A stretch of DNA of 6,856 bases, taken from positions 1-6,856 of the forward strand of contig JAEOSI010000124.1 of the NCBI GenBank assembly GCA_016840425.1. The letters are read 5' to 3'. The notes under the pieces were generated by a model, which searched no databases, was not told the DNA's origin, and saw nothing but the letters and a program-made list of their open reading frames with translations. Origin of the DNA: Candidatus Wukongarchaeum yapensis (GTDB taxonomy: Archaea > Asgardarchaeota > Wukongarchaeia > Wukongarchaeales > Wukongarchaeaceae). Both the position numbers and the translations under genes were made by a program. The stretch's first letter is position 1. Each line of letters begins with the position of its first letter. Shown one piece after another: positions 1 through 6,856 of the stretch.

Positions 1-677
1 AAACAAACCCAAGTACTCCCATTTTTAAACTTATAAGGCTCCATAAGCTCCCAGCGATAATCCACAGAATTCAAATCCTCCTCGCCCAACTGAACACCCT
101 CAACAGTCAACATCCGGTTAGGTCTTCCATTCTTTCGCAAAATGTTAAGCAAAGGCACTTCGCCTTCACCGCTAACAACGTAATCAAAAACATTCCCTCT
201 ATCCTCTCCCATCCTTTCTAAATCCTCCTTAAACTCGAAAAATTTTTGAGGAACAACTACTCCCTCCTCTTCCTCCACCCTTAACTCCATACCAATCACG
301 TCGTAAAAATCAGAAGGCAGAGCCCTAGCATGCTCTCCTCCAACAACGATCCTCAAATCCGAATCAATAACCCTCGCAGTAACAGCCATAAAAACCGAAG
401 GAATAAAAGCCATGGAAGTATAACTCGAAATACCAAAAACAGTATAATCCCCCCCACTTAACTCCTTCTCAACCATCCCCATCAACTCTTCAAGCTTGAT
501 CGAAGCTTCCCCAAGCGCCCTATAATCCCTGAGTTCCACCTCTAATCCGTCCTCATGTTCCAAAAGAAAGGACGCAATCTCGATCAACATAGGATTCTGA
601 TATCTTTCAATATAGTCATGAAACTCAGAACCTAGGCCCATAGAAGGCGCCTGAACCAACAATAAGCGCTCACCCAT
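1..677 (-). CDS. B12-binding domain radical SAM protein (class B radical SAM methyltransferase-like), N-terminal 225 aa; 3' end lies outside the window
   Basis: Hand translation from ATG at 677 is open to the window edge: MGERLLLVQAPSMGLGSEFHDYIERYQNPMLIEIASFLLE...DYTVFGISSYTSMAF...RIVVGGEHARALPSDF...FDYVVSGEGEVPLLNIL...STWVC. GISS-x-T, VVGG-x-HA and DYVV-x-GEGE are the hallmark motifs of the cobalamin-binding Rossmann domain of B12-dependent radical SAM enzymes. The CxxxCxxC motif is expected just beyond the edge and is not seen. An in-frame ATG at 728 is probably too close to the putative TATA to be used. Confidence 0.82.
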   Translation of the reverse strand, partial: MGERLLLVQAPSMGLGSEFHDYIERYQNPMLIEIASFLLEHEDGLEVELRDYRALGEASIKLEELMGMVEKELSGGDYTVFGISSYTSMAFIPSVFMAVTARVIDSDLRIVVGGEHARALPSDFYDVIGMELRVEEEEGVVVPQKFFEFKEDLERMGEDRGNVFDYVVSGEGEVPLLNILRKNGRPNRMLTVEGVQLGEEDLNSVDYRWELMEPYKFKNGSTWVC

Positions 678-935: not shown

Positions 936-985
936 TAAAATAAAAAAAGGAGAGAAAAGAAGAAATAAAATAATAGCAATAAATT
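936..985 (-). terminator. Oligo-T/pyrimidine-rich archaeal-type terminator for the methyltransferase plus small-protein transcript
   Basis: Minus strand reads ...TTATTTTATTTCTTCTTTTCTCTCCTTTTTTTATTTTAA about 100-145 nt downstream of the small-gene stop at 1081. Confidence 0.45.
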
Positions 986-1080
986 AAGTCCCTTTGAGTA
1001 AATTTAACGCCACTATAGGCAAACCTGTAAGTTAGAGGATTATTCCATCAACTAACTACAAAATATTTCTAGGGGGATTA

Positions 1081-1215
1081 TTAACCCCTCTTTTTCATCA
1101 CTTTAGTGCAGTGCTCTGGCTTAAAGTCCGCTGTATACTCAGGATTTTCTCTTATCGGGAGGACGAGACCGCAAACTTCACATTCAAACTCCATCATTTT
1201 TCCTTCTTCAGACAT
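1081..1215 (-). CDS. Small (44 aa) putative metal-binding protein, CxxC-x19-HC, desulforedoxin/zinc-ribbon-like
   Basis: AGGTGA ribosome-binding site (1222-1227) followed by ATG at 1215. Translation MSEEGKMMEFECEVCGLVLPIRENPEYTADFKPEHCTKVMKKRG, TAA at 1083-1081. Starts 27 nt after the methyltransferase stop. FECEVCG...P-x-HC-xx-xM mirrors the YKCxxCG...P-x-CCGxxM pattern of desulforedoxin-type domains. Confidence 0.8.
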   Translation of the reverse strand: MSEEGKMMEFECEVCGLVLPIRENPEYTADFKPEHCTKVMKKRG

Positions 1216-1242
1216 CTTTATTCACCTATCCCATAACTTTTC

Positions 1243-2383: not shown

Positions 2384-2724
2384 GGAAAAGTGCGTATACA
2401 CGATAATATTTTATAATTAAGAATATTCTAAGATAGCTTGTCCTCATATAAAAGCGTTTTTACAACATATTTATCCCTTTTTTAAACTCTTTATAATCTA
2501 ATTTATCTACATAGATCTTAGTATAAATATCAGAGAGACTATTTAAGAATCCAAAGATTAAACCTTTCAAAAACTTTGCTTTTTCTCCCTTCATCTAATT
2601 CAGCTCAAATTATTCCTTCCCGCGCATAAACCCCTCTAAAATTCTGACGTATACGCTGCATAGCGTCCTAACCTTCTATTAAATACCATAATTTTTATAA
2701 AGTCAAAAGAATCTATTTTTAAAA

Positions 2725-2848: not shown

Positions 2849-2899
2849 TGAAAACAAAGAGAGATTCAAAGTTTAGAAACCATGGAGGTTAGGTCTAAA

Positions 2900-3589
2900 A
2901 TGAGCAAAGAAGAATTGTTGAAAAAACTTGAACAATTAGTTATTGAGGGTGATGTAGACAACGCTCCAGCAGCAGCCGAAGAAGCTTTAGACTCCGGAGT
3001 AACACCTTGGGAATGTATCCAAGATGGTCTATCAAAAGGAATGGAAACAGTAGGACGCCTTTACGAAGAACACGAATACTTCTTACCAGAAGTTCTCCTA
3101 TCCGCTAACGCGATGTACGCTGCCTTAGACATAGTACTCCCCCAGTTGAAAGTAAGAGGTGGTGGAGAGTCCCCAGGCACTGTTGTGATCGGTGTTGTTG
3201 AAGGAGACATCCACGACATCGGGAAGAACATCGTTAAAGCCCTACTCACTGGCGCAGGATACAACGTGATCGACAAGGGAAGAAACGTCCCAGCCGAAGA
3301 ATTCTTGAAGGGAGTTAAAGAAGAAGGCGCCCAAGTAATCGCTATGTCAACCCTTATGACACCCACTCTAGAATCAATGCGTGAAGTAGAAGACAAGCTG
3401 AAAAAAGAAGGCCTAAAAGGAAAAACTAGAACCATTATCGGCGGTGCAGCTACCTCACAAACATTCGCAGGAGAAATCGGTTCTGACGACTACGGTGAAG
3501 ACGCTCAACAAGCAGTAGATAAAGTAAAAGCCCTAATAGCAGATATCACAGCCGCTGTAGCAGCCGTAGGAGAAAGGGTAGAAAAGTAA
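2900..3589 (+). CDS. Methyltransferase cognate corrinoid protein (MtaC/MttC/MtbC-like), 229 aa
   Basis: N-terminal cap domain (GLSKGMETVGRLYEEHEYFLPEVLLSANAM) plus B12-binding domain with GDIHDIGKNIV (D-x-H-x-x-G), MSTLMT and IIGGA. ATG 2900 is preferred over 2882 because GGAGGT (2884-2889) precedes it. Confidence 0.93.
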   Translation: MSKEELLKKLEQLVIEGDVDNAPAAAEEALDSGVTPWECIQDGLSKGMETVGRLYEEHEYFLPEVLLSANAMYAALDIVLPQLKVRGGGESPGTVVIGVVEGDIHDIGKNIVKALLTGAGYNVIDKGRNVPAEEFLKGVKEEGAQVIAMSTLMTPTLESMREVEDKLKKEGLKGKTRTIIGGAATSQTFAGEIGSDDYGEDAQQAVDKVKALIADITAAVAAVGERVEK

Positions 3590-3752: not shown

Positions 3753-5822
3753 ATGACAGGACAAATTGAAGTCGTTTTTCAACCCTCAGGTAGACGCCGA
3801 ATGGCAGACCCTGGAGAAAACGTGCTTGATGTAGCCAGATCTATTGGTGTAGACCTCGCATCAGTTTGCGGAGGCAAAGGTACTTGTGGTAAATGTAGAG
3901 TTGCAGTGATTTCAGGCGGTGAAAAACTAAACGAGCTAACAGAATATGAGCTTAAGAAAATGACTGATAGAGACATCAAGAAAGACTACAGGTTCGCTTG
4001 TCAGATTTTAGTGCCTACAGATGCTCCGCTTGACGCTAAGTCTGGTCACAAACGATTGGTTCTAAAAATCCCAGAAGAAAGCAAAACCGGTGAACAAAGA
4101 CTTCAGACCGAAGGAAGAGATGTACCCATAGAGATAAACCCCATAGTCAAAAAATACTATTTCGAAGTGAAGAAAGCAACCCTTCACGACCTTGTTTCAG
4201 ACGAACTTAGGATGCTAGCCGAGCTCGAAAAGAAATACGGTCTTAAAGATTTAGTGCTCACAATTGAGGCCGCTTACCAACTACCCGCAGCTATAAGAGG
4301 AGCAAAGACAGAGGACGACATGTGGACAGCTACTGCGGTAGTATGGAATGACCAAGAAATCATAGCTATAGAACCCGGAGACACAAAGGACCAGTTCTAC
4401 GGCTTTGCGGTAGACATAGGAAGTACAAAAGTAGCAGGATTCTTGCTAGACCTCAACACAGGCGAAGTGAAGTCACTTGCAGCTATAATGAACCCGCAGA
4501 TCCCCTACGGCGAAGATATCATGAGCCGTATAACCTTCACCATCCAGCGGGGTGAAGAAGCCCAAGAAATCCTCCACAAAGTCATCGTAGAAGGAGTAAA
4601 CGAAATCTGCCAAAAAGCTTGCGACCAGGCAGGGATAAACCCTGAATTGATCTACGACTGGAGCCTGGTAGGTAACACTGCTATGAGCCACCTCTTCCTG
4701 AAAGTATTAGCCAAATATGTGGCTTTAGCCCCCTACCCACCAGCAGTCAGCCGCGGTATCAACGTCAGATTAAAGGACTTCGGCATGCTCGGACACCCTA
4801 ATGCAAAAGCCTATTTTTCCTCCTGTATTGGAGGCTTCGTAGGAGCAGACAACGTGGCTGTAGTTTTAGCCTCAGATCTTGGGGTATCAGACGAACTAAT
4901 ACTTGCCCTTGACATCGGAACTAACACAGAGATAGACCTCGGCTCAAAAGAACTTGGAGCTATGTGCTGTTCAACTGCTAGTGGTCCAGCTTTTGAAGGT
5001 ATGCAGATTGCCCACGGTATGAGGGCAGCAACAGGAGCTATCGAAAGGATTAGCGTAGATCCCTTCACACAGGAAGTAGATTATAAAACCATAGGTGATG
5101 CTCCTCCTGTAGGAATTTGTGGTTCAGCCCTTGTTGAAGCACCCTCAGAATTTCTCAAAGCTGGCATCATGAACTTCAAAGGCAAAATAGATAAAGAATT
5201 ACTTGGAAAACACAAACACGTAAAACAAGGCGAAAAAGGACTCGAATTCATTATCGCGTTTAAAGAAGAAGCTGGTATAGACACGGACATATGGATCTCG
5301 CAAAATGACATAAGACAGTTACAACTTGCTAAAGCAGCTATGCACACAGGTTGCAGTGTGCTTTTGCACAGGATGAACGTTACAGAAGAAGATCTTGACG
5401 CCATTGTTGTTGCTGGAGCTTTCGGGAACTTTATCCAGCCTGAAGCTGCAAGAACTGTCGGAATGTACCCAGAAACACCACTAGAAAAGATAAGGCTTGT
5501 AGGTAACGCTGCAGGAACCGGTGCAAGAATGAACCTTGTATCAAGAGAAAGCAGACAAAGATCAGAAAACATTCCAGTCATAGTTAAATACCACGAACTG
5601 GCAATTGACCCCATGTTCTTAACTGAATACGCAAACAGCATGCTGTTCCCATACTCTGACCTAAGCAGATATCCAGAAACTTCCGAATTATTGCTCAAAG
5701 CCGGTAGAATAACCGAAGACCAATACAACAAATTCATGGAAGAAAGAGAAAAACGAGCCCTTGTCTTCGACTCCAGAGTCGACACACAAATTGCCTACGA
5801 AAAAGGTGAAAAGAAAGATTAA
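3753..5822 (+). CDS. RACo-type ATP-dependent reductive activator of corrinoid proteins (N-terminal [2Fe-2S] ferredoxin plus ASKHA ATPase), 689 aa
   Basis: CGGKGTCGKCRV...RFACQ [2Fe-2S] motif; AVDIGSTKV, YGEDIMSRI, GGFVGAD, DIGTNTEI, ASGPAFEG, GICGS, DIRQLQLAKAA, AGAFG and GNAAGTGA are the conserved RACo/AcsV-family blocks. GAGG at 3741-3744 precedes the ATG. Confidence 0.93.
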   Translation: MTGQIEVVFQPSGRRRMADPGENVLDVARSIGVDLASVCGGKGTCGKCRVAVISGGEKLNELTEYELKKMTDRDIKKDYRFACQILVPTDAPLDAKSGHKRLVLKIPEESKTGEQRLQTEGRDVPIEINPIVKKYYFEVKKATLHDLVSDELRMLAELEKKYGLKDLVLTIEAAYQLPAAIRGAKTEDDMWTATAVVWNDQEIIAIEPGDTKDQFYGFAVDIGSTKVAGFLLDLNTGEVKSLAAIMNPQIPYGEDIMSRITFTIQRGEEAQEILHKVIVEGVNEICQKACDQAGINPELIYDWSLVGNTAMSHLFLKVLAKYVALAPYPPAVSRGINVRLKDFGMLGHPNAKAYFSSCIGGFVGADNVAVVLASDLGVSDELILALDIGTNTEIDLGSKELGAMCCSTASGPAFEGMQIAHGMRAATGAIERISVDPFTQEVDYKTIGDAPPVGICGSALVEAPSEFLKAGIMNFKGKIDKELLGKHKHVKQGEKGLEFIIAFKEEAGIDTDIWISQNDIRQLQLAKAAMHTGCSVLLHRMNVTEEDLDAIVVAGAFGNFIQPEAARTVGMYPETPLEKIRLVGNAAGTGARMNLVSRESRQRSENIPVIVKYHELAIDPMFLTEYANSMLFPYSDLSRYPETSELLLKAGRITEDQYNKFMEEREKRALVFDSRVDTQIAYEKGEKKD

Positions 5823-6056: not shown

Positions 6057-6856
6057 ATGGAGGAAAAGATCTGGATAGCGGCTGGAGAACCGCGAAGGGA
6101 AATGCTTACAGGCGAGAAAAATTTCGATGCCTTCCTTAAGATAATTAGCGGTGCTTGCACCATCTTTTATGTAGAAAATCAAACATATAATGACCCCCTT
6201 AGTTTAGTTGCTGCTTGGTTAACAAACTGTGCTGAAGACGAATATGGCATAATTATAAATACGTATGATGATCCTGTAAGATTAGCAGAAAACTTTCAAA
6301 ATCTTAATCCAGAAATTGTTGAAAAAACTATAATGCTTTCAAAGGAGAACAGGTTTTTCTGGATCGACATGTTCACCTACAGGGGCTTTAATGACGTAGA
6401 GGCGGAAAAATTATGGGTTGATTATAAGTTAGCTCTTGAACCTTTGGACGTTAATTTTTCAAACTATTTTAGCGTGAAGAAGCCTTCAGATTTAGGGTCA
6501 ATTCACGGTTTGAACCCGATCCTCAACCATATTCTTGAGCGAACTGGTGGAGAGAAAAAGGCAAGAATAGCTGTAGCTTATGGTGATGATTTAGTAGATC
6601 TTACAGGGGAAGATGAGTTCTTAAAATTTTATAGGAGACAGATAAACACCATTATTCACAAGTTTAATAACGCTGCCATCTTTATTTTCAGCTATATGAG
6701 CCATTCTCAGAAGTTTCATGCCACCCTTGAAAGGTTAAGTGATTCAGTTATTAGGTGGGGATGGGGTCGGTTAGGAAGACGCTCTCAGGAAGAAAAATTT
6801 TTAGAGATTTTAAAAAGCCCCATACCCGATGTTTACCTTGGAAAAGTTCGTTACAA
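6057..6856 (+). CDS. KaiC/RAD55-like RecA-superfamily protein with degenerate Walker motifs; runs off the right edge (at least 266 aa)
   Basis: GGGGAG RBS then ATG 6057; frame open to the edge: MEEKIWIAAGEPRREMLTGEKNFDAFLKIISGACTIFYVENQTYNDPLSLVAAWL...YGIIINTYDDPVRL...FFWIDMFT...RIAVAYGDDL...HATLERLSDSVIRW...KFLEILKSPIP. The LTG-xxx-D start, IINTYDDP, WIDMFT, LERLSDSVI and LEILKS blocks line up with the archaeal KaiC-like pattern. Family call is by eye. Confidence 0.65.
   Translation, partial: MEEKIWIAAGEPRREMLTGEKNFDAFLKIISGACTIFYVENQTYNDPLSLVAAWLTNCAEDEYGIIINTYDDPVRLAENFQNLNPEIVEKTIMLSKENRFFWIDMFTYRGFNDVEAEKLWVDYKLALEPLDVNFSNYFSVKKPSDLGSIHGLNPILNHILERTGGEKKARIAVAYGDDLVDLTGEDEFLKFYRRQINTIIHKFNNAAIFIFSYMSHSQKFHATLERLSDSVIRWGWGRLGRRSQEEKFLEILKSPIPDVYLGKVRY

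Follow-up and report, generated by a model that had tools for sequence, protein, structure and literature searches.

What does a 44-residue protein with a CxxC...His-Cys motif do behind the gene of a corrinoid-dependent methyltransferase, and is its short reading frame a gene at all? These questions arise from a 6,856-bp stretch of DNA from Candidatus Wukongarchaeum yapensis (contig JAEOSI010000124.1), referred to below as the window. The window is an entire contig (G000:C121) of a metagenome-assembled genome (G000) of 2.16 Mb that is 92% complete, and the record of a sister species carries the label Candidatus Hodarchaeota (Asgard archaeon). On its minus strand, an open reading frame (ORF) for the miniprotein extends from an ATG at 1215-1213 to a TAA at 1083-1081. 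An initial annotation had described this ORF as complete, with Cys12, Cys15, His35 and Cys36 as candidate metal ligands, and had placed it 27 nt after the stop codon of an MtaA/CmuA-type methyltransferase gene with which it shares an AGGTGAA ribosome-binding site. The coordinates bear out these statements: the methyltransferase gene starts with an ATG at 2319 and stops with a TGA at 1245-1243, and AGGTGAA recurs at 2330-2324, 4 nt ahead of the methyltransferase start codon.

To judge from sequence comparison, the miniprotein ORF is, with high confidence, a genuine protein-coding gene. Exact look-ups and contig retrieval from NCBI, JGI, ENA and Logan assemblies yielded 10 distinct protein sequences sharing 68-98% identity. 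Twenty-eight of the 44 positions are invariant across the 10 sequences: the four candidate ligands and 24 others. Comparison of four distinct coding sequences placed 11, 10 and 19 variable sites at codon positions 1, 2 and 3, respectively, and gave pairwise ratios of nonsynonymous to synonymous substitution rates (dN/dS) of 0.10-0.40 in the sense frame. For comparison, dN/dS was 0.20 for the methyltransferase gene and 0.18 for a nearby gene encoding a radical S-adenosylmethionine (SAM) enzyme. All three Cys codons differ synonymously (TGT/TGC) between the window and the sister species. A 41-aa antisense ORF gave higher ratios than the sense frame and is interrupted by a stop codon in one lineage. 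The miniprotein ORF itself is free of indels, which start right past its stop codon, where conservation also falls. The initial annotation's view of the ORF as a real gene was thus upheld by both the conservation and the dN/dS checks. Its description of the gene as unannotated applies to the raw window alone: the public records (NCBI, JGI, ENA and Logan) already call the gene, which NCBI labels as a hypothetical protein. One JGI homolog (P0005, locus L017) bears the automatic IMG name 'DNA-directed RNA polymerase subunit RPC12/RpoP'. The name is apparently a mis-annotation, since the protein lacks the second CxxC and is matched by no RpoP model.

The position of the gene is fixed. All contigs with context share one gene order: genes for a 295-aa orphan protein, a RACo-type activase and a corrinoid protein lie on one strand, and the methyltransferase gene, then the miniprotein gene, then the gene for a B12-binding radical SAM enzyme lie on the other. 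Moreover, every miniprotein copy with known context is directly 3' of the same methyltransferase orthogroup. The methyltransferase matched PF01208 with an E-value of 1.3e-55 (189 bits) and M. mazei MtaA (4ay7) with an E-value of 6e-41, with LHICG and PGC conserved and the zinc motif aligned. Its NCBIfam scores fell just short of the cut-offs (237.8 versus 244 for PRK06252 and 205 versus 235.4 for TIGR01463).

At locus L018 (6285-6292), the methyltransferase gene ends in ...AGG TGA and the miniprotein ATG lies 6 nt on. At locus L017 (gene at 844), the gap between the two genes is 3 nt. At both loci, the TGA stop codon of the methyltransferase gene is embedded in the GGTGA Shine-Dalgarno sequence of the miniprotein gene which, as read from the sequence, is the classic geometry of translational coupling. 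In the window's lineage and in G001, a 21-nt insertion parts the methyltransferase stop codon from a second GGTGA, and the resulting 27-nt spacer is near-identical in the sister species. The initial annotation's proposal that the miniprotein is coupled to the methyltransferase is therefore supported by conserved synteny and by this geometry, the homologs not being scattered.

The pairing is also selective. In Asgard genomes, 24 further MtaA-like loci were checked, three of them paralogues from the window's own genome, and no comparable small CxxC ORF lies downstream of any. MtaA relatives were also compared at 71 metagenome loci that extend at least 200 nt downstream; the miniprotein was found at two of these, both orthologous, and at none of the 69 more distant ones. 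Compared with its paralogues, the partner orthogroup keeps the canonical His of His-x-Cys and is longer by a 5-residue insertion and by ~10 residues at the C-terminus. In-frame TAA codons noted in the methyltransferase paralogues proved to be ordinary C-terminal stop codons read through by the alignment. A predicted complex of the methyltransferase, the miniprotein and 2 Zn scored 0.05 against a mark of 0.32 and was counted neither way.

The predicted structure of the miniprotein was compared with several libraries. AlphaFold2, supplied with the 10-sequence alignment, gave a model with a predicted local distance difference test score (pLDDT) of 85.6, in which two beta-hairpins are accompanied by a short helix (residues 25-28) and a strand at the C-terminus. 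In a Foldseek search of the PDB, desulforedoxin (1DXG) ranked first (TM score of 0.71 by target, E-value of 0.93), followed at ranks 2-4 by N-domains of class-I superoxide reductases with E-values of ~1. VIA-align, which is independent of Foldseek, was run against 48,161 representative PDB chains and likewise ranked a desulforedoxin, 1CFW, first, with a Z score of 4.4, a root-mean-square deviation of 1.8 Å, 34 of 36 residues aligned and 26% identity; the next matches had Z scores of 3.8. The alignment spans residues 6..43 of the model and 3..36 of desulforedoxin (Dx), and its end-points put C12/C15 on Dx C9/C12 and H35/C36 on Dx C28/C29. In the AFDB clusters and the ESM Atlas, where predicted structures are compared with predicted structures, the desulfoferrodoxin N-domain was the commonest named family among the neighbors, beside FmdB-type and unnamed zinc ribbons. 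A sequence search of the PDB returned only the UBZ finger of pol-eta, at E-values of 0.2-0.35, and no desulforedoxin. Overall, the predicted fold is a zinc-ribbon or desulforedoxin-like pair of beta-hairpins. The likeness to desulforedoxin suggested by the initial annotation thus stands at the level of predicted fold, with the first rank in two PDB searches at weak scores that lie within 1 Z unit of those of other ribbons. It does not extend to family membership as defined by the PF06397 cut-off, and at the sequence level it is no better than the likeness to generic zinc ribbons.

Specifically, the PF06397 profile has 36 positions and a cut-off of 23 bits. Seven of the 10 relatives scored 14.6-20.0 bits, with the best stretch covering profile positions 7-15/18, and the window's own miniprotein gave nothing at E<=10. 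Matches below the cut-off also occurred in nine of 14 control genomes. The desulforedoxin ligand pattern comprises a CxxC and an adjacent Cys-Cys pair ~15 residues on, and the genuine Asgard members of PF06397 have an invariant C-C-G-x-x-M. In the miniprotein, the CxxCG is present and all 10 sequences have His35-Cys36 after a 19-residue spacer, as the initial annotation had noted for the window. Alignment using hhalign with 20 genuine Asgard desulfoferrodoxin N-domains gave a Prob of 86.7 over just 16 columns. The corresponding value was 93.8 over 34 gapless columns for an Asgard FmdB-like ORF and 81.8 for a TFS-like ribbon, two comparisons biased by the choice of each target as the profile's best match. 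In the FmdB alignment, C36 falls on the last Cys of the second CxxC, with P33 in place of the first. Indeed, the canonical zinc ribbon has two CxxC knuckles with four Cys, and the second knuckle here reads P33-E34-H35-C36.

Other families were no closer. Pfam and NCBIfam scans of the miniprotein matched no RpoP or FmdB (PF09723) model, and Pfam gave no match to TFS/RPB9-type ribbons either. All 10 members scored 14-18.1 bits against DUF7128 (PF23447), below its cut-off of 25.7 bits (best E-value of 0.0025) and over the first knuckle only; DUF7128 exceeded the cut-off in one of 14 control genomes. For Trm112 (PF03966, cut-off of 22 bits), five of the 10 members scored ~13.6-14 bits, and the neighboring enzyme has a URO-D fold. 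TFIIB ribbons also gave sub-threshold matches. As far as sequence can indicate, the miniprotein is a member of the zinc-ribbon superfamily whose second knuckle has degenerated to P-E-H-C. Desulforedoxin has adjacent ligands, and this knuckle either converges on that arrangement or derives from it; membership of PF06397 is not established.

Canonical PF06397 proteins scoring above the cut-off were present in 166 of 301 Asgard genomes searched and in none of G000, G001 and G002, the last being from the same order. Elsewhere in the window's genome, at G000:C4:6995-7099(-) (locus L053:1495-1599), a GTG-started ORF of 35 aa encodes CxxC...Cys-Cys-Gly-Lys-Pro-Met. It matches PF06397 over the full length but below threshold (E-value of 0.0018, 18.3 bits), and hhalign aligns it end to end with the miniprotein family (Prob of 79, 33 columns, one 5-residue gap). 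As this ORF was not found in the sister genome or in a collection of 15 billion proteins, its status as a real gene is uncertain.

The family has a narrow distribution. An exhaustive search of 1.84 billion representatives using the 10-sequence profile recovered only the protein's own cluster. A further 14 low-scoring matches were repeat proteins; of the two inspected, one appeared to be translated CRISPR repeats, and the other had repeats that we take, from their sequence, to be DUF4116-like. In 400 Asgard genomes, the profile matched in G000 and G001 only, the next best matches being unrelated zinc ribbons or broken frames. Beyond the genus, searching 61 genomes with the single sequence turned up nothing but generic zinc-ribbon noise, a word-indexed search returned only the protein's own cluster, and a scan of genome contigs for the synteny found it in the sister species only. 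The methyltransferase orthogroup and the 295-aa neighbor are similarly restricted to the clade. Based on these searches, the miniprotein family is an orphan confined to one genus-level clade of Hodarchaeota and, because of this confinement, is not a general component of corrinoid methyltransfer systems.

The reading we favor, tentatively and at somewhat less than even odds, is that the miniprotein is a small metal-binding partner or accessory subunit of the MtaA-type methyltransferase within a corrinoid protein/RACo module, and that it might act by analogy to Trm112. Partnership with the methyltransferase is the most economical reading because of the coupling geometry and the exclusive pairing. 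The miniprotein would be co-transcribed and translationally coupled with this one particular MtaA-type zinc methyltransferase, so that the two proteins would be made together and in similar amounts. One metal ion would be bound via Cys12 and Cys15 of the CxxCG knuckle together with His35-Cys36, which would occupy the site of the second CxxC in ribbons or of the Cys-Cys pair in desulforedoxin. The miniprotein would then serve as an accessory subunit, as Trm112 does for its methyltransferases. We infer that the miniprotein binds a metal, be this Zn, Fe or Co/Ni, that it associates physically with the methyltransferase and that it has the accessory role. The functions put forward in the initial annotation, as electron carrier, Zn chaperone, methyl acceptor or radical SAM substrate, are likewise hypothetical. 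Trm112 is a small zinc-knuckle protein that partners and stabilizes methyltransferases (PMC6144793, PMC5372719). Its likeness to the miniprotein is an analogy in possible mode of action, with no significant sequence match. Moreover, Trm112 partners Rossmann-fold SAM-dependent enzymes, whereas the miniprotein's neighbor is a TIM-barrel, corrinoid-dependent enzyme of the URO-D fold.

Several points weigh against the accessory-subunit reading. There are only ~4 independent lineages, so the conservation statistics are thin, and linkage alone does not equal binding to the methyltransferase. The structural matches are weak (Foldseek E-values of ~1, Z score of 4.4) and are tied within 1 Z unit with zinc ribbons of ribosomal proteins, MCM and eRF1. 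The sequence matches to named families are all under curated cut-offs and mostly cover the first knuckle only, and unrelated zinc ribbons score as high as, or higher than, desulforedoxin using hhalign. Finally, AlphaFold2 draws zinc-finger geometry with or without ligands, and of 14 C(P)XCG proteins predicted to be zinc fingers in Haloferax, five were zinc-free, three of these five holding another metal, probably Co or Ni (PMC11241148).

The basic C-terminus of the miniprotein (KVMKKRG or KLMKKIK) would suit a regulatory zinc-finger micro-protein, comparable to Brz of Halobacterium and the C(P)XCG proteins of Haloferax, that binds nucleic acid or a regulator and controls expression of the cluster. 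Archaea commonly have small zinc-finger proteins of one domain that show regulatory phenotypes (PMC2253796, PMC6562870, PMC10716476). The weak Pfam and Atlas neighbors of the miniprotein include the archaeal DUF7128, DUF7560 and HVO_0758, and strongly conserved, palindrome-bearing non-coding DNA lies upstream of the methyltransferase gene. Nevertheless, we consider a regulatory function unlikely: the overlap of stop codon and ribosome-binding site is more typical of fixed-ratio subunits, no DNA- or RNA-binding family was matched, and the miniprotein has a single CxxCG motif. An iron protein of the desulforedoxin/rubredoxin type with a Cys3His centre would instead carry electrons to the [2Fe-2S] centre of RACo or into the corrinoid redox cycle. 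Consistent with such a carrier, the cluster includes a RACo with a Fer2 domain, the desulforedoxin/desulfoferrodoxin N-domain is the nearest named fold in four libraries, the adjacent H35-C36 pair sits at the place of the Dx Cys-Cys, and the genus lacks the canonical PF06397 proteins found in many other Asgard genomes. It is quite unlikely, however, given that the miniprotein gene is coupled to the methyltransferase gene with RACo divergently transcribed, that PF06397 scores are below the cut-off and limited to the first knuckle, and that the first Cys of the pair is His in all copies. Rubredoxin-type centres, with potentials of ~0 to -100 mV, are also a poor fit to low-potential corrinoid activation. 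A bolder reading, which we regard as a long shot, is that the miniprotein is a desulforedoxin-derived Cys3His centre (Fe, Co or Zn) and an obligatory third catalytic component of the methyltransferase system. Its physiological task might be to accept or relay methyl groups as a thiolate, or to donate metal or electrons to the MtaA-type enzyme or the corrinoid protein. If true, this would define a methyl-transfer architecture unseen in the MtaABC, MtsAB and Mto systems.

The miniprotein could also be a substrate, either a precursor peptide of the B12-dependent radical SAM enzyme or an Ada-like Zn-thiolate methyl acceptor of the MtaA-type enzyme. In every contig, it is a short Cys-containing peptide encoded between an enzyme of a thiol-methylating type and a class-B radical SAM methylase, and the weak NCBIfam matches of the latter include C-methyltransferases of ribosomally synthesized and post-translationally modified peptides (RiPPs). 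The RiPP-precursor pattern is a conserved leader, a variable core and a maturase operon. The miniprotein, unlike such precursors, is conserved over its full length and predicted to fold. The radical SAM gene is ~400 nt off, past T-rich tracts and with its own conserved upstream block, and a radical SAM paralogue elsewhere in the genome (43-44% identical) has neither a miniprotein nor a methyltransferase gene alongside. A stoichiometric protein acceptor is, moreover, ill-suited to a catabolic methyl-transfer module, making a substrate role very unlikely. We assign still less weight, and only a slim chance, to the possibility that the ORF is non-functional as a protein and owes its conservation to a role of the DNA or RNA in the methyltransferase transcript, as a 3' untranslated region, a terminator or a regulatory element. 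The tiny size and youth of the family would agree with this explanation, as would the strong conservation of the non-coding DNA upstream of the methyltransferase gene. However, it is opposed by the third-position bias (19 versus 11 and 10), the dN/dS values of 0.10-0.40, the indel-free frame with indels just beyond the stop codon, the conserved Shine-Dalgarno sequence and start codon, the confident fold prediction and the lack of an Rfam match.

We know of no small metal-binding protein in the characterized corrinoid methyltransfer systems. Like the MtaABC, MtsAB and mlp-type clusters (Kountz and Balskus, PMC10418091), the module described here has an MtaA-like zinc methyltransferase, a corrinoid protein and a RACE/RACo activase. 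In the text of that article, the terms 'small protein', 'cysteine-rich', 'ferredoxin' and 'rubredoxin' are absent, and 'zinc' occurs in the reference list only.

Among small metal-binding proteins, desulforedoxin of D. gigas (1DXG/1CFW) and the desulfoferrodoxin N-domain resemble the miniprotein in having ~36-44 residues and two beta-hairpins. Desulforedoxin and the miniprotein also share the first knuckle, [YF]-x-C-E-[IV]-C-G, and an adjacent second ligand pair that, in most miniprotein copies, is followed by G-x-x-M. The miniprotein differs in having His-Cys rather than Cys-Cys, a spacer of 19 rather than 15 residues, an extra short helix at residues 25-28, and a corrinoid methyltransferase rather than an oxygen-defense enzyme as its genomic partner. 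Desulforedoxin itself coordinates Fe in a distorted tetrahedral site and is a homodimer. The FmdB-type (PF09723) and TFS/RPB9-type ribbons have the same fold class and a very similar first hairpin. Unlike these CxxC...CxxC ribbons, the miniprotein has P-E-H-C in place of C-x-x-C and is one canonical Cys ligand short. The haloarchaeal one-domain C(P)XCG micro-proteins (HVO_0758, HVO_2753 and Brz; DUF7128) are likewise archaeal, shorter than 70 aa and equipped with CxxCG knuckles. In contrast to these proteins, mostly encoded by stand-alone genes, the miniprotein has a single CxxCG and is fixed behind an enzyme gene. Overall, the miniprotein is best placed among the archaeal zinc-ribbon micro-proteins, a very common kind, as a new and orphan variant with an unusual CxxC...His-Cys site and a fixed enzyme partner.

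Features of the 6,856-bp window. Coordinates refer to the forward strand.
Feature	Coordinates	Strand	Remarks
Miniprotein coding sequence (P0001)	1081..1215	(-)	44 aa + TAA; putative ligands C12, C15, H35, C36
Spacer, 27 nt	1216..1242	(-)	Shine-Dalgarno-like AGGTGAA at 1227-1221, 5 nt ahead of the miniprotein ATG
MtaA/CmuA-type methyltransferase of the URO-D fold, 358 aa	1243..2319	(-)	His-x-Cys...Cys zinc motif; directly upstream of the miniprotein
Non-coding stretch 3' of the miniprotein	940..1080	(-)	T-rich tracts; putative archaeal terminator
B12-binding radical SAM enzyme, N-terminal part	3..677	(-)	Full length 508 aa; next downstream gene, gap of ~400 nt
Cognate corrinoid protein	2882..3589	(+)	Divergent from the methyltransferase; PF02607 + PF02310; TIGR02370, 208.6 bits
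RACo-type ATP-dependent corrinoid reductive activase	3753..5822	(+)	N-terminal [2Fe-2S] domain; domain matches
295-aa orphan protein, partial in the window	6057-6854	(+)	Full length at L048:4271-5155(-)

The cluster in the window holds only one recognizable methyltransferase together with two lineage-specific orphans, the 44-aa miniprotein and the 295-aa protein. The activase matched Fer2, RACo_linker, Raco_middle and RACo_C_ter and is AcsV-like (E-value of 8e-132). The 295-aa protein, always next to RACo in the cluster, is a second orphan component of the module. It matched no Pfam or NCBIfam family, has no relatives beyond the lineage, and yielded an AlphaFold2 model with a pLDDT of 48.9, too low for use. 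Past the miniprotein stop codon, where the initial annotation had placed a T-rich terminator, the minus strand indeed has T-rich tracts at ~1065-1058 and 985-940; these may represent an archaeal terminator. In all longer contigs, the radical SAM gene is followed, on the opposite strand, by two adjoining genes for ATP-binding cassette (ABC) transporter ATPases (L050:3565-5278; L018:8518-10266), which may belong to a transporter tied to the module.

The non-coding stretch at 2395-2760, between the starts of the methyltransferase and corrinoid-protein genes, is ~85-90% identical in nucleotide sequence across three lineages, despite a synonymous divergence (dS) near 0.5 in the flanking genes. It carries a near-perfect palindrome, GGAACCA-ttt-TGGTTCC, near 2729-2745 and a repeated GCGCGGGAA motif. 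A 44-aa ORF within it, at 2460..2594(-), is gene-called in some records. In L018, a shifted start and a 1-nt indel disrupt the frame of this ORF, and the stretch is therefore probably not a gene but a regulatory element or leader. The window as a whole, 2395-2760 included, matched no Rfam family.

Few archaea are more closely related to eukaryotes than Hodarchaeota, whose methyl-group metabolism is, to our knowledge, without biochemical characterization. The reach of the present finding is one genus-level clade, for a protein already in public annotation as hypothetical and with a role arrived at by inference. The locus provides a case in which dN/dS, synteny and the geometry of coupling sufficed to validate a micro-protein from sequence alone. 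Any reconstitution of the system must include the miniprotein if this is a subunit. Finally, if a desulforedoxin-like scaffold does hold a metal at CxxC...His-Cys, the resulting centre would be unusual and merit spectroscopy.

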